From: Chlamydiia bacterium
Lineage (GTDB): Bacteria > Chlamydiota > Chlamydiia > Chlamydiales > Parachlamydiaceae
Assembly (NCBI GenBank): GCA_038257035.1
Contig: JBBSJT010000024.1
Location: 1 to 23,795, forward strand
DNA: 23,795 bases
Direction of reading: 5' to 3'
The notes beneath the pieces are model-generated. The model searched no databases, was not told the DNA's origin, and worked only from the letters and a program-made list of their open reading frames with translations. Shown here piece by piece: positions 2,961 to 23,795 of this stretch. The position numbers were made by a program, and so were the translations under genes. Every line of letters starts with the position of its first letter. The first letter of the stretch is position 1.

Positions 2961-3317
2961 ATCTATTGACTATCAAGGTTCTGGCCTACCTATATTCTTT
3001 GTAGTCTAAAAACAATAAAAAGCAAAGCCTTAAATGAAACGAATGCCAGTGAAAAACCAAACTTAACCCTTTGAAATAATCAGACAGATGACAAAAGAAA
3101 ATGATTCCGAAGAATGTAAGTATCATCTCTTAAACATACCTTTTTTAAGCGTACAAAACATAATTCAATAAACGGGAGTTACGTTTTGAGTATTTTCATT
3201 TTATTTTCTTGTTAACCCTAACGCTCTCCCCTTTTTAATGTCAAAAAATTTATTGAAAATATTTATTTGACAAGGTATGACTATGCTCCAAGTAATGCCA
3301 ACAAGAGGAAGCAACTA

Positions 3318-7230: not shown

Positions 7231-8190
7231 ATGATTACTAGTTTAAACGGCTATAGGGACGAACTTTTTAATAAGTCCCATAATGATGCCGCACTTGATG
7301 TGCAGCTAACAAATTGGCTTGGGCATAAGGTCGTCACATTGATTACCATTCCTGTAAACCTTACGTTATTTACAGCTTCTTTATCTCTTTGCACAATTTC
7401 ATGCTTAACCATAGGCACTGCAAGATTTGCCACTCATTTTTTCACCCTTGGAAATTTTCAATTTCCCCTATCGACCGGATTCAGCACACTCATGACAAGT
7501 GCATTCGACGGATTTGTTGGCCTTGGGGTTAGTGCAGGTCAACTTACTTACGATAGCTTTAATTTAGTTTTTCAAAGTTATCGCCTTGCACGATTTGTTA
7601 TTAAAGAACTGCATCTTGATGGGATTATTTCTGTAATCGTTAAAAAAGTTGCGGAGGTTGTTCAATTTTGTTTTAGAAAAATGATAGAATTACTTAATGC
7701 TGGATTTACGCGTATCTGTGAAGGATTTACAAAAGCTTCAGAATCTGAAATTTCAGTGGAAAACTTCGATCAGAATCTACCCTCCGCTCTTAAAAAACTT
7801 AACGAATGCGTCAATGAACATCGAATTAGCTACAATGAACGAGGGTTTAACACAATTTTAAAACATTATGCCTGGTCAGTTCCTGCAATTATTTGTAATA
7901 CACCTGTCTTTATAATATCAGGATGCGCATGTGTCATTTTGGGAACACTCTTTATTGCCAAGGCCACTGTTTATACCTTAACCAATATTAATATTGCCAT
8001 TCCAACCTATACCGGCAAGGCTTTTGCTATATCTAGGGATGCAGGATTAAACGCAGGAGTAGTTCTTGCTGTGGATATTGCCGATGTCTTTGTCTTAAGC
8101 TATAAGGCAATTGATTTCCTTGGGGTGACAAAAGCTGCTGCCACAGTCTTTCAATGCTTAGCATACGCCAAAGAAGCCTTCTTCCACTAA
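7231..8190 (+). CDS. Hypothetical hydrophobic protein with an internal duplication (Inc-like candidate)
   Basis: 319-aa ORF with AAGGA RBS and no signal peptide. Two homologous hydrophobic halves. Confidence 0.7.
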   Translation: MITSLNGYRDELFNKSHNDAALDVQLTNWLGHKVVTLITIPVNLTLFTASLSLCTISCLTIGTARFATHFFTLGNFQFPLSTGFSTLMTSAFDGFVGLGVSAGQLTYDSFNLVFQSYRLARFVIKELHLDGIISVIVKKVAEVVQFCFRKMIELLNAGFTRICEGFTKASESEISVENFDQNLPSALKKLNECVNEHRISYNERGFNTILKHYAWSVPAIICNTPVFIISGCACVILGTLFIAKATVYTLTNINIAIPTYTGKAFAISRDAGLNAGVVLAVDIADVFVLSYKAIDFLGVTKAAATVFQCLAYAKEAFFH

Positions 8191-8315
8191 AAAACATTTG
8201 TAAACCCAAAAATATTAAAAATACGATTGAACTGAAAAGAAATATATATAAAATTTTCAATTTCAAAAAAGCTATATCATATATTGGATTTTTTTTCTCG
8301 AAGTAGAACAGTATA

Positions 8316-8604
8316 CACTGGTGTTACTTCAAACTGAAAAATTTAGATCTCTACAATTTATCACGTCATCGATTTTTAACAGGATATGCAGGATCGCTCC
8401 GCTTCGCTTCGCGGCAGGATCGCTAAAAGCGGCAGGATATTATCAACTTCTAGGATATATTAGAGGTTGATAATATCTTGCCGCTTTAGCGATCCTGCCG
8501 CGAAGCGAAGCGGAGCGATCCTGCATATCCTGTTAAAAATCGAAGATGTTATAATAAGTAGTTTTGAGAACATTGCAAATTTTCACTTCCAAGTAGCATC
8601 AGTA
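8316..8604. mobile_element. TA-flanked MITE-like shell (~30-bp TIRs) carrying a CAGGAT-family hairpin
   Basis: TA|CACTGGTGTTACTTCAAACTGAAAAATTT ... AAATTTTCACTTCCAAGTAGCATCAGTA|TA. Same TIR type as 17843-18113. Confidence 0.7.
8369..8543. repeat. Long palindrome (CAGGAT-module family)
   Basis: About 78-bp near-perfect arms, TCGATTTTTAACAGGATATGCAGGATCGCTCCGCTTCGCTTCGC... and its reverse complement. The loop is homologous, in inverted orientation, to the loop of 1-138. Confidence 0.95.
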
Positions 8605-8615
8605 TATACTCTTAT

Positions 8616-10061
8616 CTAAGAAACCTCTCCATGTAATGTAAGGGTGGCTTTGATGATGCAGTCGGTGTCGCGTCTGATGGTGCGCAAGAAAATCGAGTAA
8701 TCAAAAGCCGCAAAACGATCTTTGCCCTTAGTTGCAATTTGTGAGGGTCGGTTTCCACGCATGAAATGGCCCATGAAATGACCGTTACCCTTTACAATTT
8801 CAAAAAGCAGATCAAATTTAAAACCATCAAGAATTACTTCAACTTTTTCTCCGATTTGAAATGTTGTAGCTTTTATCCCTTCAATCCTAACATCCGTTTT
8901 ATCAAAAAGATCAAAGTAAAAAGCCACTTCGCGACATTCCTCCTTATCTTCAAGCTCCGGAACTTCGGCCAAAGAAAAAAGAAATTCATGGGTTTTGTTT
9001 TTCTCCGTAAAAGCAATCTTTTGACTATTTGACCCTTCAATTGTCAAAGAATGTAACCTGTTAACATTGCCAAAATTAAGTTTATAAGGAGCAAATCCTT
9101 TGTCTTGAGATGCTTTATTAGAATCTTGCTCAATAAAGGCAAAATTATAATTTTCAAACTTAAAGCACTTATACGATTGCTCGTTAATCTTACCTTGCCA
9201 AAAAAATGGCAAATGATTGTCGATTTTGTATTCGCAAGGCTGAATGAGTGAAGCATGAAGATGAATAACACTTAAGGTTAAAGCACGCTTTGAGAACTTT
9301 TTTGTTAAATAGCCCATGAATAGATCGTATAAAGTAACTTCCGGCTCAAAACCTGCCTGATATTCTAAAATATTAGGGCCTGCATAGCAATTTAAATCCG
9401 GGTGCCAAGTTTTGTTAAGATGATCCAAAAACTTTTGACTAAATTTCATGTCAACCATCTGTGAGGCAATAATTAAATCACCCAAGTGTTTTGGTATAAA
9501 CCAGTCTCTTGTTACATCGTTAAATTCAACAAGCCTTTTTTCTCCGTCGTTTTTAAGCTCGTTTATATTAAAAAGGTTGCCCACTGCTTGCAAAGCTGCT
9601 GCCAATTTGATGCGCATAAAATAGGGCGGATTTTTTTCGGTTGAAATTTTAATGCTATAGTTAACAAGGTCAAGTAATGCCTTTTCCAAACGCTCCCTTA
9701 AGGGGTTTCCGAGAATTTGATGAAAGTCCTTGTAAATCCAATATAAAGGTGCAATTAAGGAGATTGCCAAGTAATGATCTTTGCATTCCGGATATTCATG
9801 CAAATAGACAGGAAACTGTCCGTCAGAACTTGCAAAATGGAGAAGCTTTTCAACTAAAACCCTTGCTCTTGTGATGTTTTCAACCGTACGTGTTTTAAAA
9901 AGGGAAAGTGCAAACAAAAAATTCTCTAAAACAGGAATTGTTAAATGTACATCATCTTGTAAGGCATGATACTTTAAGTGAAGAAAATCTGTTTGCAAGC
10001 TAATGCGTTTTTCCCCCGCATTTAAACAAAGATCGTTAATTTTTTTTAAATATTCATCCAT
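8616..10061 (-). CDS. Conserved-looking hypothetical protein (~481 aa)
   Basis: Long ORF. Start moved to ATG 10061, just after the upstream SDR stop, making it the third gene of the folB operon. No function recognised. Confidence 0.8.
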   Translation of the reverse strand: MDEYLKKINDLCLNAGEKRISLQTDFLHLKYHALQDDVHLTIPVLENFLFALSLFKTRTVENITRARVLVEKLLHFASSDGQFPVYLHEYPECKDHYLAISLIAPLYWIYKDFHQILGNPLRERLEKALLDLVNYSIKISTEKNPPYFMRIKLAAALQAVGNLFNINELKNDGEKRLVEFNDVTRDWFIPKHLGDLIIASQMVDMKFSQKFLDHLNKTWHPDLNCYAGPNILEYQAGFEPEVTLYDLFMGYLTKKFSKRALTLSVIHLHASLIQPCEYKIDNHLPFFWQGKINEQSYKCFKFENYNFAFIEQDSNKASQDKGFAPYKLNFGNVNRLHSLTIEGSNSQKIAFTEKNKTHEFLFSLAEVPELEDKEECREVAFYFDLFDKTDVRIEGIKATTFQIGEKVEVILDGFKFDLLFEIVKGNGHFMGHFMRGNRPSQIATKGKDRFAAFDYSIFLRTIRRDTDCIIKATLTLHGEVS

Positions 10062-10065
10062 CGAT

Positions 10066-10776
10066 TTATAACCTAAGTCCTCCGGCAACTTCAATATTTT
10101 GGCCGGTTATGTAATGATTGTTTGGGTTTAATAAAAATAAGACAACATCGGCAACCTCTTGTTTAGTTCCGAATCGTTTCATTGGTAGTTCCTTAGCATT
10201 TATTGGAGCATCAAAGGAATCTTCAAGCATTCCCGGTGAAACCATATTGACAGTCACATCAAATAAGGCAAGATCCTTTGCAAGGCTTCTTGTAAGCATT
10301 AAGAGCGAGGCCTTCGTCATGCTATAGACCATTGAATAATTTTCAGCCCTACCATGATCGATTCCACATACGCCAATATTTACAATACTTCCCTTTTCTT
10401 CTTTAATTGAAGGTATTATAGATTGAATCAGAAATAAGGGTGCAAATAGATTGGTCATAAAAAGAGCGTTCGTTTCGTTAAAAGATGTTTCTAAAACAGG
10501 TTTAACCAAATAATTACCCACGTTATTCACAATATTTTTTATTTTTTTAAAGGGTTTTAGCAAATCAATAAATGCTTTCATCCCCTCAAAATTAGAAAAA
10601 TCACCAAAAACAGCCTCTGCTTTAACTCCAAGAGTATGACACTCTTTGACAAGTTCGAATGCTTCCTTTTTGCTTTTATTGTAGTGGATCAGAAGGTCTT
10701 GTTTATTTTTTGCAAGTTTTAACACTATTTCTTTTCCAAGATTTTTAGCGCCACCTGTCACAAGAGTTTTACTCAT
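10066..10776 (-). CDS. SDR oxidoreductase, FolM/pteridine reductase-like
   Basis: TGGAKNLG, IHYNKS, NNVG, YSMTK (YxxxK) and VNMVSPG. Directly downstream of folB. Confidence 0.8.
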   Translation of the reverse strand: MSKTLVTGGAKNLGKEIVLKLAKNKQDLLIHYNKSKKEAFELVKECHTLGVKAEAVFGDFSNFEGMKAFIDLLKPFKKIKNIVNNVGNYLVKPVLETSFNETNALFMTNLFAPLFLIQSIIPSIKEEKGSIVNIGVCGIDHGRAENYSMVYSMTKASLLMLTRSLAKDLALFDVTVNMVSPGMLEDSFDAPINAKELPMKRFGTKQEVADVVLFLLNPNNHYITGQNIEVAGGLRL

Positions 10777-11136
10777 TTAAAGACTCCCCCCTTCAAGTTC
10801 AACAACCGCATAATTTGCAAGTGGCAGAGCATTTGGTTTTTTTATTCTAACAAAAGCCCATTTAATTTTGTATTGGTTCATCAAAGTTTGGATGAGTTCA
10901 AAAGCAAAAGTTTCTAACAGTCGATAACCTTTTAAACTTAATTCTTTACACAAATTTCCAAGCACTTCATAACAAATTGTTTTTTGAAAATCATCATCGC
11001 TCGCGGCTTTAGAAAAATCGTATTCAACGCGAAGATCTAAATAAATTGTTTGATTATTTTTCCGCTCTTCCTCGTGCACACCAATGATGCAGTCGATTTT
11101 ATAATGATCAAAGCCGATTTTTCCAATAAACTTCAC
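10777..11136 (-). CDS. folB: Dihydroneopterin aldolase
   Basis: IIGVHEEERKNNQ, TICYE, LLETFA and VRIKKPNA. GTG start with GAGG RBS. Confidence 0.93.
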   Translation of the reverse strand: MKFIGKIGFDHYKIDCIIGVHEEERKNNQTIYLDLRVEYDFSKAASDDDFQKTICYEVLGNLCKELSLKGYRLLETFAFELIQTLMNQYKIKWAFVRIKKPNALPLANYAVVELEGGSL

Positions 11137-11199
11137 TTTAACCTCTTGCTTGCTTCTTAAAAATAGTTTATGATCCGCATCTTTAACTTATGGGTTCTT

Positions 11200-11652
11200 A
11201 TGATAAAGTATTTGCGCATTTATTTCCTTCTAATGTTTTTACTTTCTAGTTTAACTCCGCTTTCTTTAAGCTCGCAAGAACGCGTTTTAAATAAGAGGAC
11301 AGAAGAAGACATTCCGCTACCGCCCTCTTTAAGGGAAAGTTCAAAAAAAGAGTTACCTCGAGAAGATAATTTCATGAAAGAGTTTATCAAGATGTTGCTG
11401 ACGCTTGCCTCAATAATTACCATCTTGCTCCTTATAAGCTACTTATTAAAAAAGTTCATGAACACACGCATCCAGCAGATCAACGAATCAAGCTTGATCA
11501 AAATTTTGGAACGACGAACAATGAGCCCCAAAAGCTCCGTTTATATCTTAGATATAAAAGGGCGCCAGGTTGCTATTGTGGAGTCCCATAATGCGCTATT
11601 ACTACTTCCTGAATTACCCCAAGATGAATATGAAGAAGATAATAACAAATAG
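11200..11652 (+). CDS. FliO-like membrane protein
   Basis: Signal-like N-terminus, one TM segment, then IKILERRTMSPKSSVYILDIKGRQVAIV, resembling the FliO cytoplasmic beta domain. Start uncertain (11170 or 11200). Confidence 0.7.
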   Translation: MIKYLRIYFLLMFLLSSLTPLSLSSQERVLNKRTEEDIPLPPSLRESSKKELPREDNFMKEFIKMLLTLASIITILLLISYLLKKFMNTRIQQINESSLIKILERRTMSPKSSVYILDIKGRQVAIVESHNALLLLPELPQDEYEEDNNK

Positions 11653-11662
11653 AGAGATTAAA

Positions 11663-11836
11663 ATGAGTTATTTAAAATTGAAAAAACATGTTTTTTTGAT
11701 TGTTGTACTGTGCAGCCTCACAAGCTGCTACCGCATGCCAACAGATCATGATTACTCGCTTGTGCCTAATGTGAACAACCCTGACGTCACAAGAGGCAAG
11801 CCGGGCAGCTTAAGTGCCCCCAGCATGGCCTTTTAG
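11663..11836 (+). CDS. Small lipoprotein (57 aa)
   Basis: ATG 11 nt after the previous stop. Basic N-region, hydrophobic core and lipobox LTS-C. Confidence 0.7.
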   Translation: MSYLKLKKHVFLIVVLCSLTSCYRMPTDHDYSLVPNVNNPDVTRGKPGSLSAPSMAF

Positions 11837-11892
11837 GACCATAGCCTCTTATATTAATACGAAGAAACCGCTGGAAGCTCACAAGCTTTTAG

Positions 11893-12021
11893 ATTTTTTA
11901 ACGCAAAGAAGCTGCAAAAGGCGCAAAGGCGCAAAGATAAAAAGATCTTTAAAAGTGTATAGAGTTTTTTTAATTCTTTGCGCCTTTGCGTCTTATTGCA
12001 GCTTCTTTGCGTTAAAAAAAT
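11893..12021. repeat. Long palindrome (CGCAAAG-module family)
   Basis: TTTTTTAACGCAAAGAAGCTGCAAAAGGCGCAAAGGCGCAAAGA ... TCTTTGCGCCTTTGCGTCTTATTGCAGCTTCTTTGCGTTAAAAAA. Related to 13932-14090. Confidence 0.92.
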
Positions 12022-12203
12022 ACCAACCTCAATAGATTCCTAGCGGTCTAAAATGTATTTACTGTCTTCGTGTTTAAAAACTCAGAAACTAAAGAAATAA
12101 TTATGCGTACGAATCAAGTGGATCGGATTATGCAGTCCAAGATGGCATTTGGGAGTGGTCAAGGAAATATATGCTGATTTTTGGATATTTTTTTTGAAAA
12201 TTG

Positions 12204-12232
12204 TTGCTATTCTTATGATTTTCATCTAAGAT
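12204..12232 (+). promoter_or_regulatory. Candidate sigma70/66 promoter for the csrA operon
   Basis: TTGCTA-N17-TAAGAT about 110 nt upstream of csrA. Pattern match only. Confidence 0.35.
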
Positions 12233-12340
12233 TGACAACTAATGCCCCACCCTGTCACATGAACGACAGATGGTATAAATAAAACTTGAGATTACACTCC
12301 AAGTAAAAAGAACATTAACTTTCTCTCATAGGCTTGATTT

Positions 12341-12607
12341 ATGTTAGTTTTAACAAGAAAAAGGGAAGAAAAAATTACAATCGGCAATAACCCCGGCATT
12401 GTAATTACAGTTTTAAAAATTCAAGGCGATAAAGTTTCTATAGGAATTGAAGCCTCACCTGACATACCTGTTTTTCGTACAGAGCTTCTCACACGAGAAA
12501 GACCTCAAAAAACCGAAACCGCTTCTCATAATCAAAGTGAAATCGCAATTGAAAGCTTACAAATCGATCTTGAAAAACAAAAACTTCATTTAAACCACAA
12601 AAATTAA
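12341..12607 (+). CDS. csrA: Carbon storage regulator CsrA with a C-terminal extension
   Basis: MLVLTRK..EKITIG...ITVLKIQGDKVSIGIEASPDIPVFRTEL. Confidence 0.92.
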   Translation: MLVLTRKREEKITIGNNPGIVITVLKIQGDKVSIGIEASPDIPVFRTELLTRERPQKTETASHNQSEIAIESLQIDLEKQKLHLNHKN

Positions 12608-12617
12608 GTAAGATCAG

Positions 12618-13106
12618 ATGAAAAAACCCTTTATTGAACTTAACTTAGAAAATCTACTTAAACATTTTAAGAAAACAAAAGAAAATGCAGTTTTACAAAC
12701 TGAGACCGATCAAATATTAATTACTGTTAAATTTGATAAAGTTGAATTTCCTCTATTTGTTCGTATCACAGAAACCCAAGATTTGCTACAATTGCTTGCA
12801 TTTTTCCCGTGTAACATCAAAGCGGGATGCGAATCTGACATGGCGCGTACCTTACACCTTTTAAACAAAGAACTTGATATTCCGGGATTTGGAATGGACG
12901 ATTTTAATGGTTTGGTTTTTTATCGCTGCATGATTCCTTGCCCTGATTTGCACTATCACGAAGCCGTCATCGATAAATACCTCGATGCTGTAAAAATGAT
13001 TTGTCAATCTTTTCTTCCCTTAATTTTTGCAATGAGTCAAGGAAACATGAAATTTTCAGAGATTTCAAACAAGCTTGGCGATTTAATGCAAACAGCAGAT
13101 AAGTAA
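12618..13106 (+). CDS. CesT/YbjN-fold type III secretion chaperone (CT260/Mcsc-like)
   Basis: ETDQI...FPLFVRI...LLQLL..FP...ARTLHLLNKELDIPGFGMD...VFYR. Adjacent to dnaQ, as I recall for C. trachomatis CT260-CT261. Confidence 0.8.
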   Translation: MKKPFIELNLENLLKHFKKTKENAVLQTETDQILITVKFDKVEFPLFVRITETQDLLQLLAFFPCNIKAGCESDMARTLHLLNKELDIPGFGMDDFNGLVFYRCMIPCPDLHYHEAVIDKYLDAVKMICQSFLPLIFAMSQGNMKFSEISNKLGDLMQTADK

Positions 13107-13110
13107 AAAA

Positions 13111-13824
13111 ATGACATTTAGACCTATATATTACGATACAGAAACCACCGGAATTAAAACCGACAGGGACCGTATTGTTGAACTTGCGGCTTATGATCCT
13201 ATCAACGATCGCTCATTTGAAATGTTAATTCATCCAGGCCTTCCAATTCCACCGGAAGTATCTGCCATTCATCATATCACGGATGAAATGGTTGCAAATT
13301 CCCCATCTTTTGCACAAGCTGCTGTTGAATTTGTAAAGTTTTGCGAAGGGAATGTTATTTTAATTGCCCACAACAATGATAATTTTGACTTACCCATGAT
13401 GCGAAATGAATTTGCCCGTCATCAAGTCATCATGCCGGCGGAATGGAAATTTTTAGACAGTTTAAAATGGGCAAGGAGGTACCGTCCTGATCTACCACGA
13501 CATACACTTCAATTTTTAAGAGAAATCTACGGCATTGCAGCAAATAATGCCCATAGGGCCTTGGATGACGTAAAAGTTCTTTATCAAATGTGTAGCCATA
13601 TGTTTGATGATTTGTCAATCGATGATATTTTCCTTTTAATCAACAAACCTTTTGATATTCTTCATATGCCTTTTGGAAAGTATCAAGGAAAACCCTTACA
13701 AGATGTCCCTGCAGATTATTTAAAGTGGCTTTTGGCTAACGGCGCACTCGACAAACCAGAGAATCAAGAACTTAAGCGCTGCTTCGGCAAACACCCCAAC
13801 TACCTCAGCCTCCTAAAATCATAA
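13111..13824 (+). CDS. dnaQ: DEDDh 3'-5' exonuclease (DNA Pol III epsilon-like) with a C-terminal MPFGKY domain
   Basis: YDTETTG, AHNNDNFD and HRALDD. C-terminal MPFGKYQGKPLQDVPADYLKW. Confidence 0.88.
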   Translation: MTFRPIYYDTETTGIKTDRDRIVELAAYDPINDRSFEMLIHPGLPIPPEVSAIHHITDEMVANSPSFAQAAVEFVKFCEGNVILIAHNNDNFDLPMMRNEFARHQVIMPAEWKFLDSLKWARRYRPDLPRHTLQFLREIYGIAANNAHRALDDVKVLYQMCSHMFDDLSIDDIFLLINKPFDILHMPFGKYQGKPLQDVPADYLKWLLANGALDKPENQELKRCFGKHPNYLSLLKS

Positions 13825-13873
13825 ACAGACTCACTTTCATCAAGATGGGAACTATTTTCCAAAGTGGTCTGTT
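13824..13873. other. Short inverted repeat after dnaQ (terminator or mini-element)
   Basis: AACAGAC(T)CACTTT ... AAAGTGGTCTGTT. Confidence 0.45.
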
Positions 13874-13876
13874 GAA

Positions 13877-14169
13877 ACCAGAAGAGCGCGAAGAAGCTCG
13901 CTTAAAAGCGTGAGAAGAAAAAAGTTAGTGTAGCTTTTTTTAACGCAAAGGCGCAAAGACGCAAAGAAGGACTTTGCTAAAATCTATTGCTACTAGTAAC
14001 CCTAGCAATATGCAAATATGAATAAAGTACGTTATAAAAATTAAATTTCGCTTTTCTTTGCGCCTTTGCGCCTTTGCGTTAAAAAAAGCTCTAATGGCTT
14101 TATATTTCCGCGCTTTTTTAAGCGCGCTTCTTCGCGTACCTTCGCGTCTTTCTTCGCGCTCTTCGCGGT
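13877..14169. repeat. Nested palindromes: outer CGCGAAG-module arms, inner CGCAAAG-module arms, innermost short IR
   Basis: Outer arms about 13877-13910 and 14110-14169. Inner arms 13932-13968 and 14054-14090. Innermost TATTGCTA/TAGCAATA at 13985-14010. Confidence 0.88.
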
Positions 14170-14242
14170 AAGATGGTCCACAAAAACTAGATACTAAAAT
14201 CTTCTCTGTGGTGAAAAATAATTAATGGGAAATAGGTGTGAA

Positions 14243-15046
14243 ATGCAGAAGACGAAATTGATGGGGATATTAAATGTTACCCCAGACTCATTCTTTGATC
14301 GAGGCGAGGCTTTTGATACAACTAAAGCCATTGAGAAAGGTCTTAGAATGTTTGATGAAGGAACTGATATTCTTGACATCGGTGGCGAATCGACGCGTCC
14401 CGGTGCGACTCCTGTAAGTGCTGAAGAAGAAATTTTGCGTGTTATTCCCGTAATTTCAGCGTTAAAGTCAAAAATTAATATCCCTATATCTATTGATACA
14501 ATGAAACCTCAAGTTGCTAAATTGGCAATTGATGCCGGAGCATCCATTATAAACGATGTAACAGGTTTTATAGATATTGAAATGGTTGAACTCGCAAAAA
14601 AAACGGGTGTCCAAATTGTAGTCATGCATATGCGAGGAACCCCCCTTAACATGCAAAATGATTTACATTATGAGGGTGGCATCGCTGAAGAAATCCTTGT
14701 TTTTTTTAAAGAGCGAACTACATTTTTAACATTAAAAGGGATTAAAAAAGAGCAGATTATTTTAGATCCTGGTATAGGCTTTGGAAAATCGGTTGCTGAT
14801 AATCTCAAAATCATACACAATTTGTCTAGGTTTAAGGAATTGGGGTTTGCCGTTTTACTTGGAATTTCACGTAAGTCATTTATGGGTAAGATTTTAAACA
14901 ATAAACCTTGCTCCTTATTGCCTGCAACAATTGGGTTGAACAGTGTCGCAATTATGAATGCTGTAGATATAATTCGTGTGCATGATATAAAAGAGCACCG
15001 AATGTTAATAGATTTAATGCATAATTATATGGAAGAAACAAAATAA
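14243..15046 (+). CDS. folP: Dihydropteroate synthase
   Basis: MGILNVTPDSF, DIGGESTRPG, DPGIGFGK, SRKSF and IIRVHD. ATG 14243 has an AGGTG RBS (alternative start 14225). Confidence 0.97.
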   Translation: MQKTKLMGILNVTPDSFFDRGEAFDTTKAIEKGLRMFDEGTDILDIGGESTRPGATPVSAEEEILRVIPVISALKSKINIPISIDTMKPQVAKLAIDAGASIINDVTGFIDIEMVELAKKTGVQIVVMHMRGTPLNMQNDLHYEGGIAEEILVFFKERTTFLTLKGIKKEQIILDPGIGFGKSVADNLKIIHNLSRFKELGFAVLLGISRKSFMGKILNNKPCSLLPATIGLNSVAIMNAVDIIRVHDIKEHRMLIDLMHNYMEETK

Positions 15047-15048
15047 GC

Positions 15049-15852
15049 ATGGAATTTTTTAGTTTGCTGGTTCCGACATTTGAAATATTGATCATGGCAA
15101 TCATGCTCTACTACCTGCTGTCGTTTTTTTGGAATACGCGCGCAATGGATTTAGTGCTTGGTATTTTTTCTGTTTTAGCCTTATATACCCTCTCTATTTG
15201 GTTTCATCTTCCTGTTTTACAAAAACTGATGCTTTATTTTGTTAATGTTGCAGTGATTGCCCTTCTGATTATTTTTCATCCAGAATTAAGGCTTGCCTTG
15301 TCAAAACTTAGCGTTAAAGGAAAAAAATATCGGGAAATCACAGAGTTTGACAAATTTCTTGATAACTTAGGTCTAACAACTTACCGCCTTTCTGAAAAAA
15401 AAATCGGGGCTTTAATCATTTTGGAAAACCAAGATTCCCTAGAAGAGTATGCTAATAAGGCCGTAATTCTCAATGCTGATTTTTCATCCGAACTTTTAGA
15501 AACGATTTTTTCAACTACAACACCCTTACATGATGGTGCTGTAATTATCCGAGGCACAACCATTTTATCTGCTGCTACAATTTTACCCCTTGCAGATGAA
15601 AGTTCTCAGATTACAAAATCAATGGGAACACGCCACCGTGCAGGCCTTGGCATAAGCCAGCTCACCGATGCCCTTGTGATTGTGGTCTCTGAAGAAACAG
15701 GGAAGGTTTCAATTGCAAGAGATGGTATTATGACTCGTGGCGTTAAACTCGATCGCTTCAAAGGGATTGTACGAAGTATTTTCACCCCTCCAAAAACTGC
15801 TATAGAAACGAGTATGGATGCATTAGGTAGGTTTAAGCAATGGAATCGTTAA
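15049..15852 (+). CDS. cdaA: Diadenylate cyclase CdaA/DacA
   Basis: Three N-terminal TM segments, PLHDGA, GTRHRA and VVSEETG. Confidence 0.95.
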   Translation: MEFFSLLVPTFEILIMAIMLYYLLSFFWNTRAMDLVLGIFSVLALYTLSIWFHLPVLQKLMLYFVNVAVIALLIIFHPELRLALSKLSVKGKKYREITEFDKFLDNLGLTTYRLSEKKIGALIILENQDSLEEYANKAVILNADFSSELLETIFSTTTPLHDGAVIIRGTTILSAATILPLADESSQITKSMGTRHRAGLGISQLTDALVIVVSEETGKVSIARDGIMTRGVKLDRFKGIVRSIFTPPKTAIETSMDALGRFKQWNR

Positions 15853-17096
15853 TCGCAAGACTTTTTCTTCAAAATTGGCAACAAAAATTAGTGGCACTTA
15901 TCAGTGCCCTTGTAATTTGGTTTTTTGTTAGTCAATCGATTATTGAAACAAAAATCATCCCAAGGGTCCCTATACGCATCGTTAACTTGCCACGGGATAA
16001 AACAATTTTGGGACTCAATCCAAATGGTTTATTATCTAAAAGGATTACCCTTACCCTGACAGGTACAAAAGATGTGATTCACACCATTGAAACCGGGGAT
16101 CTTGAAGTTTTAATTGATGCCTCAATAATCGATCATGATGATTGGGTGCTTCAGATCAATAAAAAAAATCTTGTTAGCCTTAACCCATCCATTGATTTAA
16201 AAAACCACATACGTCAAGTCTCACACACAGAAAACGTTATCAGGCTCCGTCCTTTAATCACCGAAAAAGTACAGATCACAATTCAGGAGCCCACCGGAAA
16301 ACCCCCTGCAGGATATGAATTTTTGGATGTCTGGCCTCACCAGTTGATGCAAACATTAAGTGGTGCTGAAGAGGAAATCCAACATCTAAAAATTACAGGT
16401 CTTGAAGTTACTTTTGACTTAAATCAAATTACAGCAGCCGATCTTGATGCGATTAAAAACACAAGAGATCATTTACAAGATGATGAAGTCAGTTTTACCG
16501 TCCCTAATAAATGGAAAAAAATTCTTATTCCTTTTCATGAGAATGCTCTTGAAGACTTCAATGATCCTGACGCACAATATTTAAGGTTGGATTTTTTAAG
16601 AAAAGAAGTGTTGCCCGTTAAAAATATTATTCCCGTCAGAATTTTTTACCCCTTTAAATTTAGCGAAACACTCAATCCTAAAACTTACACACTTTTGACC
16701 GAAGCACCTATTGAAGAGAAAAACCATTTAACGTTTTTGACAACTCCACTTTTTGCAAAAGGTGTCAGCAGGCTTTTTCTAGATATCATCAAAGAAAATA
16801 TGGAGATTACAATTATTGCAGCACCAAAAAGCGAAAGAGATCTTTTGCAATGGACCATTGATGTTGCAGATGTTCATGACTTGGAAGATATTTATGTCGC
16901 TTTTCTAATTTCGAGCATGAAACAGTCAAAAAATAATCAGGATTCAATTTCTAAGAATCGCGAGCAGTTGCTAAGACAACGCTTTAGAGATTACTTGCAA
17001 AAATTAACACTTTATAGAAATCCTGAAGATAAACTTTCCCTGGAAGCCAAACTTGAACAGAATGTCATCAAGGTGACAATTGATAATTTAAACTAA
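15840..17096 (+). CDS. ybbR: YbbR/CdaR-like regulator of diadenylate cyclase
   Basis: NWQQKLVALISALVIWFFV anchor followed by VPIRIVNLP. Overlaps the end of cdaA. Confidence 0.82.
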   Translation: MESLIARLFLQNWQQKLVALISALVIWFFVSQSIIETKIIPRVPIRIVNLPRDKTILGLNPNGLLSKRITLTLTGTKDVIHTIETGDLEVLIDASIIDHDDWVLQINKKNLVSLNPSIDLKNHIRQVSHTENVIRLRPLITEKVQITIQEPTGKPPAGYEFLDVWPHQLMQTLSGAEEEIQHLKITGLEVTFDLNQITAADLDAIKNTRDHLQDDEVSFTVPNKWKKILIPFHENALEDFNDPDAQYLRLDFLRKEVLPVKNIIPVRIFYPFKFSETLNPKTYTLLTEAPIEEKNHLTFLTTPLFAKGVSRLFLDIIKENMEITIIAAPKSERDLLQWTIDVADVHDLEDIYVAFLISSMKQSKNNQDSISKNREQLLRQRFRDYLQKLTLYRNPEDKLSLEAKLEQNVIKVTIDNLN

Positions 17097-17099
17097 TCT

Positions 17100-17813
17100 A
17101 TGCCAAAAGAACGTTTTTTTCTCGAATCCCCTCTTAAAGAAGGTGAACTGATCTCTATTCGTGACGATGAGTTTCATCATTTAAATGTGATGAGGCCAAA
17201 AGTCAAACAACAAATCGAGATTGTTAACGGTAACGGTGAGCTTGGCATTGCCACACTTGAAACTTTAGAAAAAAAACAAGCAACACTAATTATTGAAAAA
17301 GTAATTAGAGAACCTTTTGAAACCTTTAAAGTCATCTTGGCGCAAAGCTTTTGCCGTCCAAATCGACTAGATTTTATTCTAGAGAAAGCAACGGAGCTTG
17401 GTGCTACAGACATCTGGCTATTTCCAGGAGTGCATAGCGAAGCGAAGGATTTGAACGATCATAAGCTTGCCCGCATGCGTGCCATTACGATTTCTGCCAT
17501 GAAGCAATGCGGAAGGCTTTATCTTCCAAAAATCACTTTAAAACCAACCTTGGAACATTTTGAAAAAAGTCCCTATTCATCTTTTTTTGGGGATGTGGAT
17601 CAAAATGCTCCAAACTTTCTTGAATGTTGGAAAAAGGAAAGTCAAAATGAAGGTGTTTTATTTTTTATTGGTACAGAATCTGGTTTTAGCGATGCAGAAA
17701 CAAAAAGACTTTTGAGCCTTGGTGCAAAAGGCGTTAAAATTAACAAAAACATCCTACGCACCGATACTGCCGCCATCACTGCCTTGAGCTTAATCGGCAG
17801 TAGGCTTTGTTAG
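17100..17813 (+). CDS. rsmE: 16S rRNA m3U1498 methyltransferase
   Basis: HHLNVMR, ILEKATELG, AMKQCGR, IGTESGFS and NILRTDTA. Confidence 0.95.
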   Translation: MPKERFFLESPLKEGELISIRDDEFHHLNVMRPKVKQQIEIVNGNGELGIATLETLEKKQATLIIEKVIREPFETFKVILAQSFCRPNRLDFILEKATELGATDIWLFPGVHSEAKDLNDHKLARMRAITISAMKQCGRLYLPKITLKPTLEHFEKSPYSSFFGDVDQNAPNFLECWKKESQNEGVLFFIGTESGFSDAETKRLLSLGAKGVKINKNILRTDTAAITALSLIGSRLC

Positions 17814-17842
17814 TACTTTCAGAGATAAGTAGAACCAGTATA

Positions 17843-18113
17843 TACTGATGCTACTTGAAAGTAAAAAGTTTCAGATTTTTTCAACGCAGAGGCGCAGAGA
17901 CGCAGAGACGCAGAGAAGCGCGCTAAAGCGCGAAAAGAATAAGAAAAGTTAATCGTTTTTCGTGGCTTAGAAAAGAATTTAATTTGTTGTTTTTCGCGCT
18001 TTAGCGCGCTTCTCTGCGCCTCTGCGTTGAAAAAATCATATACTTTTAAATAAGTTTCTTAACAGCATACTCTTAATTTTTTTTAAATTTTTCACTCAGA
18101 AGTAGAACCAGTA
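17843..18113. mobile_element. TA-flanked MITE-like shell (~30-bp TIRs) carrying a CGCAGAG-family hairpin
   Basis: TA|TACTGATGCTACTTGAAAGTAAAAAGTTT ... AAATTTTTCACTCAGAAGTAGAACCAGTA|TA. Confidence 0.75.
17874..18037. repeat. Long palindrome (CGCAGAG-module family)
   Basis: GATTTTTTCAA(CGCAGAG unit x4)AAGCGCGCTAAAGCGCGAAAA ... TTTTCGCGCTTTAGCGCGCTT(CTCTGCG unit x2)TTGAAAAAATC. Confidence 0.92.
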
Positions 18114-18117
18114 TATA

Positions 18118-18255
18118 TACTTTCTACTCTCAAATGAAAAAGAAATTAGACCTCTACAATCTATAACAACTTGCATATCCTGAAAAATTTAAGGTGCTAA
18201 ATTAATAGATTTATTAGTATTGCAAGTTTTAGTTTTAAAAACTGTAGAAAAATAT
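18118..18255. mobile_element. Degenerate copy of the 8316-8604 element lacking most of the hairpin
   Basis: ATTAGACCTCTACAATCTATAAC resembles 8341-8364, TGCATATCCTG equals 8522-8532, and ATTGCAAGTTTT resembles 8572-8583. Confidence 0.55.
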
Positions 18256-18325
18256 TGGTGAATGTCTTGTGCAAAAGCTGAAAATTTATTATAAATAATC
18301 AAATTTAAAAAACTTTAGGGATTTG

Positions 18326-19237
18326 ATGTTTTCAATAAATCACGATTTAAATACTTGGCCACTAGAAATTATTGATAATATTATTAAGCAAGCCCCTCTT
18401 TATGAACAAGGTTCTGTTATTTCTCGTATCTCTAAAAAATTTGAACATGCCAATACAGCATACAGAGAGGGCGCGCAAAATATTTTCCTGGAAATAAAAA
18501 AAAACTATCCTGGTTTTCAAACAAAATTCACAACTGAGCAAAGAATCCAATTATTTAGCTCAATCGGCAAAAACAATTTATTAAACGAATTACACAACTT
18601 GGAAAATAATTTCTTATCAGATTTTTTTCATATCAATTGGAATTCAGATGATTCTGAAAATCTAAAAATAAACAACCATTTTGGAAATCTCCGCATAAAA
18701 TGTTTTTTTTCAACTCAAATGTCATCTTATGATGTATGCTCGTATGGTGGATATTTTCTTTACACTGGCAGTGGCTTTGAGCCAAAAATATCTTATACTT
18801 CCCACGTCAAATTTACTCAGCGAAAAATAGGTTTTAACTCTTGGCTGCCGGTATCTAATACTGTTAAAAGCCATATAGTCAATACTGCATTTAATGTTGA
18901 TCTTCAGCAAGCTATCAACATGATCGCAAAAGAAAACATTAAATATCTCTCACATATTAAGACGCTAGATGATGTTTTAGATGGTATTTCTTTTTTTTGT
19001 GATTCTAAAGGTAGATTCACCCCGTTAAAAGATTCCTCTACCCTTTATAATTTTTATTTAATGGTTGAAAAGGAATATATACATCCTTTTTTAAGATGGA
19101 CAACAGATAAATATAAACGTACAAACTATTCCCCATCCCTTCAAGAAGCTCTAAGAAATAGCGCCCTTTCTAAAACAACCGAATTGCTTGCGAAACAGCT
19201 TAAAATCTATAATTTGTACAACAACAATAAAAGTTAA
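18326..19237 (+). CDS. Hypothetical protein with an N-terminal F-box-like motif (candidate effector)
   Basis: DLNTWPLEIIDNIIKQAPLYEQGSVISRISKKF fits L..(L/W)P.EI...I.....+..VSK.(F/W). Very AT-rich. Confidence 0.6.
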   Translation: MFSINHDLNTWPLEIIDNIIKQAPLYEQGSVISRISKKFEHANTAYREGAQNIFLEIKKNYPGFQTKFTTEQRIQLFSSIGKNNLLNELHNLENNFLSDFFHINWNSDDSENLKINNHFGNLRIKCFFSTQMSSYDVCSYGGYFLYTGSGFEPKISYTSHVKFTQRKIGFNSWLPVSNTVKSHIVNTAFNVDLQQAINMIAKENIKYLSHIKTLDDVLDGISFFCDSKGRFTPLKDSSTLYNFYLMVEKEYIHPFLRWTTDKYKRTNYSPSLQEALRNSALSKTTELLAKQLKIYNLYNNNKS

Positions 19238-19357
19238 CTACTCTAGATTCACAAAAAATAAATATAATAAGAGTAAAATATGACTCCTAGAGATTATGTA
19301 ATTTCTATGTAATAGAGAAAAAACCGGTACAAAAACTATTTCAACATAATTTATAGA

Positions 19358-19912
19358 TCAGGGCCAAGTTCTTTCAACCAGAAAAAGAAACCCTAATAAA
19401 AAAAGGCACAAAATCAAAACCACTGCGCCATATGGGACTTTTAAAAGATCGGCAATTGTGATTTTCCCTAAATCCCCCCACTTTGCGATCGTTTTTTTAA
19501 TTTCGCCTGACAGTTCAGCAAACACATATGAGCCAACTAATAGCCCCCCTACTCCAAAGAGGGCATCCCAATTTCCTTGACCAATAGCTGCAGCGCCCGT
19601 ACCTGGGCAGTAACCAAGCAGAGCAAAGCCTACACCAAAAATGAGGCCACCTATTATGTTGGAACCAAGTCGAGTTGGTTGTAAATGAAGATTAATAAGT
19701 GCTAATTTATTAAGAAAGTAGACCCCTACCATTCCGACAAGGATTGCCGACATCATTACTTTAATCACTGTAAAATCTTGTAAGAGTAATTGTCCGATCA
19801 GAATATGGTATTTGGCAACTCCTCCTTTTTGCAATAAAAAACCAAATATAAATCCAAAAATTATGGCTTGAATTAATTTTTGACTCTGCGGCTTTTCTTT
19901 TGTATTAATCAT
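19358..19912 (-). CDS. YeeE/YedE-family sulfur-compound transporter subunit
   Basis: GFIFGFLLQKGGV and IIGGLIFGVGFALLGYCPGT. ATG 19912 has an AAGGA RBS. Confidence 0.88.
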   Translation of the reverse strand: MINTKEKPQSQKLIQAIIFGFIFGFLLQKGGVAKYHILIGQLLLQDFTVIKVMMSAILVGMVGVYFLNKLALINLHLQPTRLGSNIIGGLIFGVGFALLGYCPGTGAAAIGQGNWDALFGVGGLLVGSYVFAELSGEIKKTIAKWGDLGKITIADLLKVPYGAVVLILCLFLLGFLFLVERTWP

Positions 19913-19922
19913 ATTCGTTTCC

Positions 19923-20513
19923 TTATAACCTAAAAAGTACATTTGCAACAATTACTCCACTCACAAAAAAGCATATGACTGCAATCCATGAAGCCACGTT
20001 CAATTGCATTGTTCCGCTTATTCCATGCCCACTTGTGCATCCGCCGGCAAGTCTTGCACCAAATGCCATCAATAACCCACCCACAAAACTAAAAGCGACT
20101 CGTAGCCACAGACTGTGTATACCAAATTGATCTTTCCACATTTGCGGAAGCCATATTCCATTAAATTCGCCACCTGTCCATGCAGCAACGAATGCTCCGA
20201 AGACTATTCCCAGGACAAAAATAAATCCCCAATTTACTCGAGGAGGATTGTCTTTGTAATATTGAAGGGATTTTGTATGCTTTTCTGCAATTAAATTTCC
20301 AAACATTCCTGCAAGTGTAGCATAAAATGAAGAAGCTCCAACAGGTTTGTCTGAAAAATATAAAGTCATGCAAGTAAGTATTCCAATTAATGCACCCACC
20401 ACGTAGGGCGACCAGGCGGCTTGATCGTAGTTAGCAGCATTTACCACTTCTTCAGCCCCGTAGGCATTCATTGAAAAAAACGTAAAGAGTAACACCCAAA
20501 ATATTGATTTCAT
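19923..20513 (-). CDS. YeeE/YedE-family sulfur-compound transporter subunit with an N-terminal signal-like peptide
   Basis: WSPYVVGALIG, PVGAS and FGARLAGGCTSGHGISG. Start moved to MKSIFW at 20513. Confidence 0.88.
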   Translation of the reverse strand: MKSIFWVLLFTFFSMNAYGAEEVVNAANYDQAAWSPYVVGALIGILTCMTLYFSDKPVGASSFYATLAGMFGNLIAEKHTKSLQYYKDNPPRVNWGFIFVLGIVFGAFVAAWTGGEFNGIWLPQMWKDQFGIHSLWLRVAFSFVGGLLMAFGARLAGGCTSGHGISGTMQLNVASWIAVICFFVSGVIVANVLFRL

Positions 20514-20978
20514 TTTTGTCCCTGTTTTTGTTTCGATTCTTCTTTTTCTATGGGGGGTTAGCATTTTTCCATACAGCGAAACACCGGTAAAGGATTTAGG
20601 ACCTGGCATGACTAAGAAGGATCTTTCACTGATCCCTGTTATTGATTAAACCTATCCTTTTATCGAACACAGCTCTCAATCATCATCCCGAACTTAGGTT
20701 CTGGTACACCATCCGTCAAAATTTGTTCAATACTAACGCATTAGTTCCTTACTAGAACCCTTGCCTCACAAATGGAAAAATGTCATATAATAAATATTTG
20801 GTCAACCAAATCAAAAGTATTGCATTATAGAAAACATTCAAATTACTAATACTAAAGAGCATTAATAGGAAGAAATGAAATTAGTAGACATAAATAAAAC
20901 AGAACGTATATATAAATATTTGCATTGTTATCTATATACAAAGCCATTTTTAGATCTTTATCTTTAACACATGAGGAA

Positions 20979-22190
20979 ATGATGGGTAAAACATTTTTAG
21001 CTCTACTGATAGCGCCTGCTATTTTATTTACTTGGGATCATGCATCTGCAAACGAAACTCAAGAATTCATTGCTCAATCGGGTGAAAGCAAACAAGGAAA
21101 CAGATCACGTGAGGGCAATAGCGATTCAAGAGGATCCCGTGGGGGCAATAACGATTCAAGAGGGTTCCGTGAACAACAATCCAGAGGACCGGACCAAGGA
21201 TCACAGGGACAGCAGCCCCAAATGCAGCAAGTTCGCACACAGGAATTGCAGGAAAGAAACTCAACTGAAATTGATCGGAATCGAAATCAAAATCAACAAA
21301 GAGTTATCGAACAAAAGAATGACTTAAATCAAATTCAGGATTTGAATCGAAATCAAATAAGAAATGTCGAGCAAAGGAAAGACTTTAACGATCAAAAACG
21401 GGGTTGGGAATCAGAGAGAAGGGATTCAGTAAAGACTCCCGATGTATATAGAGATGGAGACAAAGACCGAGCAGGTTACAGAAAAGAGAGAATTTCCAAA
21501 GAACGTTTAAAGGAAAGGGAGAGTCGCTGGCAGTCGAAAAGCCAAGAATGGCGTAAACATTTTTCTAATTACAGATCGCGCGATCATATCTTTGATGATC
21601 ATTTTTGGAATCATTTCCGAAGAAGAAGCAATAACTGGTATTTCGATAACAATTTTCAATGGTATTCAGGCGCGACTTGGCCGCGCATCGTTGTGTGGCT
21701 TCCTTGGGCTTGGAGTCGACCGATTTATTATTATTATGAAACGGATGGTGACGTATACTACAGCACAACTGAAGACTTTTCTTACCTCATACCTGTGGAT
21801 TCCAAAGAACTATTCATTGAACAGGCTATAAGGATTGCAAATGCACGATATCCTATTTCCAAACAGCAGTCCGATTGGATGCCGCTCGGAATGTTCGCAT
21901 TTGCATTAGAGAATGATTCTTCAGATACTCCAAAAAGGTATATATCACTTGCTATCAGCAAAGAGGGCGCAGTATCGGGCGCATATTTTGATACTGCAAA
22001 CAATACAATGCTCGAAATTCATGGGGGAATTGATCCTGAATCACAACGCATTGCATGGAAACTTGGAGGAAACGATTGGCCGATCATGGAAACGGGTCTT
22101 TTCAACCTTACAAAAGATGAATCCACTCTATTAATTCATACTTCTGGTCATACAACTGAAACTCAAGTGCTTATCAGGCTTGATAAATAA
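20979..22190 (+). CDS. Exported protein with an R/Q-rich low-complexity region and a conserved-looking C-terminal beta domain
   Basis: GAGGA RBS, signal peptide ending ASA, and a 30-bp duplication at 21111-21170. The C-terminal WMPLGMFA...LAISKEG..SG.Y...METGLFNLT resembles Planctomycetes 'protocadherin-like' surface proteins (from recollection). Confidence 0.75.
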   Translation: MMGKTFLALLIAPAILFTWDHASANETQEFIAQSGESKQGNRSREGNSDSRGSRGGNNDSRGFREQQSRGPDQGSQGQQPQMQQVRTQELQERNSTEIDRNRNQNQQRVIEQKNDLNQIQDLNRNQIRNVEQRKDFNDQKRGWESERRDSVKTPDVYRDGDKDRAGYRKERISKERLKERESRWQSKSQEWRKHFSNYRSRDHIFDDHFWNHFRRRSNNWYFDNNFQWYSGATWPRIVVWLPWAWSRPIYYYYETDGDVYYSTTEDFSYLIPVDSKELFIEQAIRIANARYPISKQQSDWMPLGMFAFALENDSSDTPKRYISLAISKEGAVSGAYFDTANNTMLEIHGGIDPESQRIAWKLGGNDWPIMETGLFNLTKDESTLLIHTSGHTTETQVLIRLDK

Positions 22191-22198
22191 GCTTAATT

Positions 22199-22221
22199 CG
22201 GTCGGGGCCTCGCCCCGGCTG
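22199..22221 (+). terminator. GC-rich stem-loop after the exported-protein gene
   Basis: CGGTCGGGGC-CTC-GCCCCGGCTG. No clear U-tract. Confidence 0.4.
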
Positions 22222-22351
22222 TATAGGAATAATCATTGATCTTCAAAGGGCTAATTAAAAAAAAGATTATCAAATAGGAAAAATTCTCTTTGTTTAAATG
22301 GTTTCATGTGCTACATAAAACGATAATTTAATAAAGAAACCAAGGTCTCCT

Positions 22352-23680: not shown

Positions 23681-23795
23681 GAATGATCAGATCCGCATTT
23701 GTAAAATAAAATAAAAAAATTTACAAGGTAATCTGTTGGTATCACGAAAAACGCATAAACTCATGATAAATTGAAAGCAAAAACTCATCAATTGA

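Follow-up and report, generated by a model that had tools for sequence, protein, structure and literature searches.

Two small elements of an environmental chlamydia probably combine an IS630/Tc1-type MITE shell with hairpin cassettes

The stretch of DNA analysed here (the window; 23,795 nucleotides, GenBank contig JBBSJT010000024.1 of assembly GCA_038257035.1) comes from a bacterium of the chlamydial family Parachlamydiaceae and constitutes contig C24 of a metagenome-assembled genome (MAG), designated G000, which comprises 2.37 Mb in 210 contigs, has 36% G+C and is 95.8% complete. The FabI and DnaQ proteins of this MAG best match the NCBIfam models PRK06300 and PRK06309, which are of the Chlamydia type. 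The window carries two short elements, element 1 at 8316-8604 and element 2 at 17843-18113, which the original prediction, made from the sequence of the window, had described as a single kind of shell with a common terminal inverted repeat (TIR), TA flanks and two unrelated hairpin cargos. Both the coordinates and the ends were confirmed, and the shell is referred to below as a miniature inverted-repeat transposable element (MITE). The prediction's list of ends was incomplete, with further end fragments adjoining both elements (8300-8313, 17814-17840 and a decayed third shell). The features of the two sites, by window position, are as follows.

8200-8313, forward strand: right linker and TIR of another MITE, the rest of which is missing
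8314-8315, no strand: TA flank to the left of element 1 (putative target duplication)
8316-8604, forward strand: element 1, MITE shell with CAGGAT-type cargo, 289 bp
8316-8341, forward strand: left TIR of element 1, CACTGGTGTTACTTCAAACTGAAAAA
8371-8541, no strand: cargo 1, CAGGAT hairpin cassette, from GATTTTTAA to TTAAAAATC, of a family with 50 loci in the genome
8579-8604, reverse strand: right TIR of element 1
8605-8606, no strand: TA flank to the right of element 1
17814-17840, reverse strand: TIR-only stub of 27 nt, directly after the RsmE stop codon
17841-17842, no strand: TA common to the stub and element 2
17843-18113, forward strand: element 2, MITE shell with CGCAGAG-type cargo, 271 bp, absent from the related metagenome contigs L099 and L100
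17843-17869, forward strand: left TIR of element 2
17874-18037, no strand: cargo 2, CGCAGAG hairpin cassette, from GATTTTTTCAA to TTGAAAAAATC, whose arm also occurs in TIR-less genera
18087-18113, reverse strand: right TIR of element 2
18114-18117, no strand: a pair of TA units separating element 2 from the next shell, the first being the right flank (18114-18115)
18118-18254, forward strand: third shell, CAGGAT type, decayed and with its hairpin deleted, whose left end is orthologous to a remnant in L099 and L100

Both elements end in an inverted repeat of about 28 nt, TA followed by TACTGGTKCTACTTSAAANTGAAAA, and the neighbouring fragment at 8200-8313, whose 14-nt end has lost one base, touches element 1 through their common TA. 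Cargo 1 is built of CAGGAT units and cargo 2 of four CGCAGAG units with a period of 8; in both, arrays of 7-8-mers stand in inverted orientation between borders of the form GATTTTT(T)(C)AA ... TT(G)AAAAA(A)TC. Folded as single-stranded DNA, the interior of element 1 reached -115 kcal/mol against -30.4 +/- 3.9 for shuffled sequences (z -21.9), and that of element 2 reached -69 kcal/mol against -33.6 +/- 3.6 (z -9.7). To call the cargos unrelated was therefore too strong, as their sequences differ but fall into one architectural class. An intrinsic terminator was considered and rejected for these hairpins, because the T run lies 5' and the A run 3' of the hairpin on either strand. Scans of the window with Rfam 15 at the gathering score and for tRNA or tmRNA genes returned no matches.

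Our searches revealed that the TIR is abundant throughout G000. The 16-mer AAGTAGNANCAGTATA has four exact matches in the window plus one with two mismatches (eight with up to three mismatches, against 2.43 expected) and 79 matches genome-wide with up to two mismatches, compared with one in the backwards control. The 28-nt consensus gave 144 genome-wide matches against 4 in the reversed genome, and nhmmer at E<=1 gave 120 against 1. Overall, the genome holds about 144-160 TIR ends, compared with 1-4 in reversed-sequence controls. Strict pairing of the 16-mer yielded 17 left/right pairs of 173-617 bp, 15 of which are non-nested, and the expectation that paired TIRs would recur elsewhere thus held. 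At 71 good ends the inward order is TA, TACTGGTKCTACTTSAAANTGAAAA, a variable linker, a T run and the hairpin. Solo ends and stubs of 16-27 nt are common, and insertion end to end was seen at about 14 of these 71 ends. With its TIRs, small size, lack of an open reading frame (ORF) and multiple copies, the shell qualifies as a MITE.

Every complete copy examined has TA on both sides, the 15 non-nested ones of G000 as well as nine in four other Chlamydiales genomes (G063, G035, G413 and G386). The next two bases outward are again TA at about two-thirds of the ends, yet this outer TA is not duplicated in the copies on C4, C8, C58 and C84, and a 4-bp duplication fails in at least six copies. Because TA always flanks the shell while the outer TA is not always duplicated, the simplest reading is a duplication of TA together with a preference for TA-rich palindromic targets. 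Insertion almost only at TA, with duplication of TA, is described for ISY100, a member of the IS630 family, in the available part of PMC2170065.

The hairpins form a second repeat class with a distribution of its own. Self-comparison of G000 uncovered 452 palindromic regions covering 81 kb, or 3.4% of the genome, with tandem 7-8-mer families bordered by T runs: CGCGAAG at 94 loci, CAGGAT at 50, CAGTGAG at 46, CGCAAAG at 29 and CGCAGAG at 17. Counting as shell-borne any locus with at least one TIR of the most sensitive set within 220 bp, the share is 31/50 (62%) for CAGGAT, 7/17 (41%) for CGCAGAG, 11/46 (24%) for CAGTGAG, 4/29 (14%) for CGCAAAG and 5/94 (5%) for CGCGAAG; four of the five families thus lie mostly outside shells, with CAGGAT as the exception. 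The counts of free cassettes are upper bounds, and shells cut by contig ends are undercounted. Viewed from the TIRs, a hairpin lies within 150 bp inward of 70 of the 115 usable ends (61%) and outward of 19 (17%), with 5.4% for random 150-bp windows, which upholds the predicted excess of hairpins inside shells.

At least six hairpin families are carried by the shell in G000, and one shell can be found with different cargos. The copies at C25:12807 and C128:924 have both linkers in common (...GCCTATACGATTTTTTA, AAAAAATCATAAAAGTT...) and carry CAGTGAG and CAGGAT cargos, respectively, while C138:4762 combines their left linker with another CAGGAT cargo; likewise, linker L1 occurs with CAGGAT (element 1 of the window, C58 and C171) and with CAGTGAG (C22:13545). 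In each case the sequences part at the same place, with GATTTTTTA on the left of the cargo and TAAAAAATC on its right. Composites with CGCAAAG cargos at four different loci show 90-97% identity, and the nearest neighbour of a shell-borne cargo is always shell-borne in the CGCAGAG (7/7) and CGCAAAG (4/4) families. The shell cargos that are nearest a free copy (6/10 for CAGTGAG, 3/5 for CGCGAAG and 8/26 for CAGGAT) suggest several acquisitions, or losses of ends. The original prediction of interchangeable cassettes was thus borne out insofar as one shell with homologous linkers occurs with different cargos, but only CAGGAT is mostly shell-borne and no empty shell was found. Similarly, its two-tier system stands insofar as the shell is a vehicle for different cargos, but nesting is not special to the MITE, since cassettes also lie in the loops of other cassettes, as in the window at 13878-14176, where a CGCGAAG hairpin holds a complete CGCAAAG cassette (13935-14087) in its loop. 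In L099 this site is occupied by a GxxExxY gene with a CACAGAG cassette after it. A free CGCAAAG cassette lies at 11892-12020 of the window, where L099 has instead, at the orthologous site, CAGTGAG cassettes together with a decayed TIR end.

We put at roughly 70% the probability that each element consists of two kinds of mobile DNA, a MITE shell of the IS630/Tc1 type and a hairpin cassette of heptamer or octamer arrays, which have multiplied jointly. A competing account would have solo MITE ends land beside pre-existing intergenic hairpins, the resulting pair of TIRs then mobilising an accidental passenger with no cassette insertion at all. This would suit the frequency of solo ends and stubs inserting end to end, the concentration of the abundant hairpins in intergenic DNA, and the wide variation of linkers between subfamilies. 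It is nevertheless improbable, given that cargos of different kinds stand between one and the same pair of linkers, the break always falling at the same T-run border, that hairpins lie predominantly inward of the ends, that the cargo is centred in the shell, and that there is no known way for a solo end to move.

The assignment of the shell to the IS630/Tc1-mariner type draws on related genomes. Among 401 Chlamydiales genomes surveyed, the TIR is multi-copy only in G000 (64 matches), G063 (34), G035 (11), G413 (6), which belongs to a different family, and G386 (2); in G063, G035 and G413 it bounds elements of about 165 bp with a conserved interior that lacks the heptamer hairpin. IS630 (DDE_3) genes occur in 22 of the 61 genomes surveyed within the family. 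G035 carries a full IS630 transposase (206.6 bits; cut-off 100), after which come an end identical at 23 of 28 positions to the TIR of the G035 MITE and then TA, and G413 holds an internally deleted IS630 remnant whose end matches the G413 MITE TIR at 25 of 28. Full IS630 elements of 1.1-1.2 kb with related TIRs are present in G188, G096 and G230. The TIRs of G000 agree with the IS630 ends of relatives at 14-21 of 28 positions (random mean 7.7), and the ends in the window agree with the full insertion sequences (ISs) of G188, G096 and G230 at 14-17 of 28. From this likeness we infer that the shell is a MITE of the IS630/Tc1-mariner type, and the original prediction of a multi-copy, TA-flanked MITE proved sound. 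An IS630-family transposase bounded by the shell TIR, which the prediction had proposed to look for, was not found in G000.

Several searches for a partner were negative. No end resembling the shell TIR emerged from an inverted-repeat search at six DDE_3 loci of the family, and G008 has many DDE_3 copies and no shell TIR. The mariner profile Transposase_1 (PF01359) gave no match, its control being likewise silent and the result uninformative; no TnpB was found in G000, and the one IS110 gene has no link to the repeats. RUP and Correia are MITEs of the IS630/Tc1-mariner kind. The shell resembles such MITEs in its short TIRs, lack of coding capacity, copy number, TA on both sides, insertion in a TA-rich palindromic context and relationship to the IS630 ends of relatives. 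It differs in that this genome holds no cognate transposase, in that its interior is a second repeat class rather than an IS deletion remnant and varies between copies of one shell, and in that shells often stand end to end, with TIR-only stubs.

The cargo class is also found around genes. In G000, a GxxExxY gene (TIGR04256, 138 bits; PF13366) lies in the loop of a CGCGAAG hairpin (C7:925-1589), and a second one, on C17, lies beside CGCAAAG arms. Among 14 GxxExxY loci, 13 from other genomes plus that on C7, heptamer-array arms were present on both sides in 10 and on one side in 4, and the arm types include CACAGAG, CGCAGAG-like, CACAAAG, AACGATA and, in G005, CAGGAT. The gene is enclosed by CAGGAT arms in G005 (L202) and by CGCAGAG-like arms in G004 and G018, and three hairpin-arm matches lie within about 40 bp of GxxExxY genes (G018:C81, G010:C48 and G007:C45). 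Because arms of the same class enclose these genes, the cargos appear to be gene-less miniatures of GxxExxY (PDDEXK_3) nuclease-fold cassettes, with which they have in common the arms of inverted tandem 7-8-mers; unlike those cassettes, the hairpins here sit in a transposon shell and spread with it. In G029, of the same order, 67 PDDEXK_3 matches in 1.9 Mb, many of them identical C-terminal fragments, look like a large expansion of GxxExxY cassettes. A sequence search of the PDB with the GxxExxY protein gave no match, and literature searches for GxxExxY and PDDEXK_3 found no paper describing such elements; PF13366 is listed with its function unknown in the accessible portion of PMC3424549. A parallel is offered by the Ssn nucleases, where, as far as the available text of PMC11893778 goes, a small nuclease gene is accompanied by hundreds of cognate dispersed repeats (NTS/SRM). 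The GxxExxY gene is likewise a small nuclease-fold gene that goes with dispersed repeats, but its fold is PD-(D/E)XK rather than GIY-YIG.

These relatives also bear on the notion of a single MITE family with fast-evolving ancestral stems, in which the heptamers would have changed by compensatory mutation or array conversion and free hairpins would be MITEs that have lost their ends. In its favour, the architecture and the GATTTTTT border are common to all cargos, a single base, compensated in both arms, separates CGCAGAG from CGCAAAG, and many free CAGGAT copies have kept shell linkers. Such an origin is quite improbable, however, considering that CGCAGAG arms are present in genera without the TIR, that in other genera, and even in other families of the order, GxxExxY genes stand between arms of the same class, that the canonical MITE of G063, G035 and G413 has a conserved hairpin-free interior, and that 89 of the 94 CGCGAAG loci lack a TIR within 220 bp. 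Hairpins of the CGCAGAG or CGCAAAG type without the TIR were found in G018, G016, G010, G017 and G015, and searches of relatives matched the hairpin arm of element 2 but not its TIR.

Comparison with close relatives revealed how the composite behaves as a whole. L099 and L100 are syntenic with the window from 7530 to 23795 at about 90-92% identity, and the flanks of element 2 are 92.3% and 92.2% identical to them, respectively, over 3642 aligned bases. After the RsmE stop codon, L099 and L100 read ...GAACTATTA-TA-TACATGTATTAATCC..., and the window reads ...GAACCAGTA-TA-[TACTGATG...271 bp...CCAGTA]-TA-TA-TACTTTCTACTC... Element 2 is missing exactly, TIRs included, from both contigs, and both borders fall inside the TA run. 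Since it is wholly present in one lineage and wholly absent from the other, the second composite, TIRs included, is one insertion/deletion unit. Its site is an older back-to-back junction, formed by the stub at 17814-17840, which persists in decayed form in a relative without element 2, and the decayed CAGGAT-type shell at 18118-18254. The sequence of 8200-8313 recurs in L099, where it comes after a CACAGAG cassette. Site 1 is filled in L099 (660-990) by another composite, a GGGGAC-type inverted repeat (GGGGACATTGGGAGACAATTGCA) around a GTAGGCTTTAGCCTGC-type double hairpin. A further palindromic MITE of about 170 bp, with GTACACTGTAAGG... ends, lies at C15:28589-28809 of G000, apparently inside a coding region, and its site is empty in L099; its borders, ACTAG/.../CTAAC, fit a TA duplication in CTAG and serve as a positive control for TA-targeting in this lineage.

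Other comparisons yielded no readable empty site: against G001 and G002, of the same genus, the genes are only 63-78% identical; of the public runs, X1 is probably the source sample, and the contigs of a relative about 92% identical in X2 and X3 break at both MITE sites, with no joined (empty) form seen; and the intergenic DNA around a G063 MITE could not be aligned with that of three genomes of its genus (about 80% identity), leaving the duplication unreadable. A contig scan with RsmE found only a chlamydial MAG at 42% identity and unrelated phyla. That the linker and cargo combinations are chimeras from a repeat-rich metagenome bin is very improbable: the MAG has 210 contigs, many of which begin or stop inside these repeats, but identity at the swap border extends over only about 13 nt, presumably under the usual assembly word size, the independent contigs L099 and L100 hold the same kinds of elements and nesting, and contigs of the two further runs carry the TIR and break at the same sites.

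A third repeat class in this genome is associated with RAYT-like genes. Nine Y1_Tnp Pfam matches in G000 correspond to about seven such genes, some of them broken, at the following positions.

C29:9113-9457, RAYT-like Y1 gene
C119:363-704, RAYT-like Y1 gene
C105:2280-2621, RAYT-like Y1 gene
C7:10608-10945, RAYT-like Y1 gene
C25:9991-10328, RAYT-like Y1 gene
C48:13969-14277, RAYT-like Y1 gene
C68:12300-12539, RAYT-like Y1 gene

Six of them each have their own palindromic family on either side, and that on C48 has repeats upstream only; several of these families carry GTAG. The arrangement is that of the REPtron described in the available part of PMC3733652. Repeats of the C105 family (GCAGGCC/CCTAGGGC) are nested in the CAGGAT cargos of C4:14351 (617 bp) and C58:7212 (475 bp). 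G000 resembles genomes with repetitive extragenic palindrome (REP)/REPIN-RAYT and TIRtron systems in having dispersed hairpin doublets together with Y1 genes, but neither the TACTGG TIR nor heptamer cassettes flank any of its Y1 genes, and for this reason a REP or REPIN identity of the two elements was excluded.

Modular or nested small repeats are familiar from BOX, from ERIC with internal inserts, from BIMEs and from cyanobacterial small repeats in MITE-like sequences. The elements described here resemble them as interchangeable or nested modules; they differ in that the modules belong to mechanistically different classes and that a T-run/A-run palindrome serves as the fixed border of exchange. 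What is new here is that one class is nested in the other, with exchange at a fixed border.

In the proposed mechanism of the MITE-plus-cassette reading, the shell, made up of TA flanks, the TIR of about 28 nt and short linkers, would be non-autonomous and move by cut-and-paste into TA, with a preference for TAs that adjoin the end of an element already in place or form part of (R)TA-TA-TA(Y), under a transposase that this assembly does not encode. The interior would belong to a hairpin cassette class dispersed over the genome and the chlamydial family, whose full-length form encloses a GxxExxY gene. Cassettes would have entered or been exchanged in shells several times at the fixed border between GATTTTTTA and TAAAAAATC, either by insertion at the T/A-run dyad or by recombination between cassettes through their common borders, both of which fit, and after acquisition shell and cargo would have multiplied as a single unit. 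A more specific and doubtful possibility is that the palindrome formed by GATTTTTTA and TAAAAAATC in the shell is a docking site for the site-specific insertion or exchange of hairpin cassettes, as miniatures of GxxExxY elements. If this were true, a Tc1/IS630-type MITE would act as a moving platform on which another, as yet undescribed class of mobile DNA is exchanged, resembling an integron attachment site on a transposon but made of non-coding parts only and acted on in trans.

Several observations weigh against the MITE-plus-cassette reading. No IS630 transposase was found in G000 or in G063, both of which are rich in the TIR, and the sole IS630 trace in G000 is a 38-aa fragment (C163:2-115); the IS of G035 is readable at one end only, as its contig stops inside the gene. 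No empty shell was found, with none of the 16 T-run/A-run palindromes of the genome lying between TIRs, and in G000 itself neither CAGGAT nor CGCAGAG arms were seen on a gene-bearing cassette. Some of the cassettes counted as free may be shells with decayed TIRs or with TIRs past a contig end, and 18 of the 40 CAGGAT loci without both TIRs are within 220 bp of a contig end in this fragmented 210-contig MAG. Finally, the original prediction foresaw a single TA at the empty site; insertion in a TA run did appear in L099 and L100, but the empty allele has three TA units and the filled one 3+4 (its own terminal TAs counted), one unit above a plain TA duplication. Slippage in the TA run over about 8% divergence is a sufficient explanation of the extra unit, but the TA duplication itself stays putative. 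None of the outcomes that the prediction had named as speaking against it was observed, namely TIRs unpaired elsewhere, no TA duplication relative to empty alleles, and hairpins no more frequent inside shells than outside.

Further features were noted in passing. A GGAGTGC palindromic family (G000 C1:60243, C29:6180 and C115:356) has at its dyad centre GATTTTTTAAAAATC, the motif that borders the shell cargos. In the window, a 304-aa ORF at 18323-19237 lacks an equivalent in L099 and L100 over its first ~750 bp; conservation, at about 80%, is confined to the 3' end (from 19077), and no NCBIfam family was found for the ORF. At 20580-20761, about 1.46 kb of L099 (12878-14341) is missing, with short remnants only aligning. 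L099 contains within a coding region (14740-15180) a long tandem array of a ATATCGATTCAAAAGGGCCCCGTGAGAGTA-like unit of about 27 nt, of which the window has about one unit at 21150-21330. A 626-aa ORF at 3267-5147 contains a collagen-like Gly-X-Y stretch, which Scl/Lcl adhesin models match weakly, far under their cut-offs.

Full-text literature searches found no description of MITEs, palindromic repeats or fast turnover of intergenic repeats in Chlamydiae. The two elements are a clear example from nature of hairpin cassettes, linked to a nuclease gene, that ride inside a transposase-dependent MITE, and riding in this way explains how gene-less CAGGAT can become so numerous in a genome without its gene-bearing form. 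The defined borders and matched shell pairs supply material for testing the movement of the uncharacterised GxxExxY elements, and the findings as a whole document MITEs and a very fast turnover of intergenic repeats in environmental Chlamydiae.

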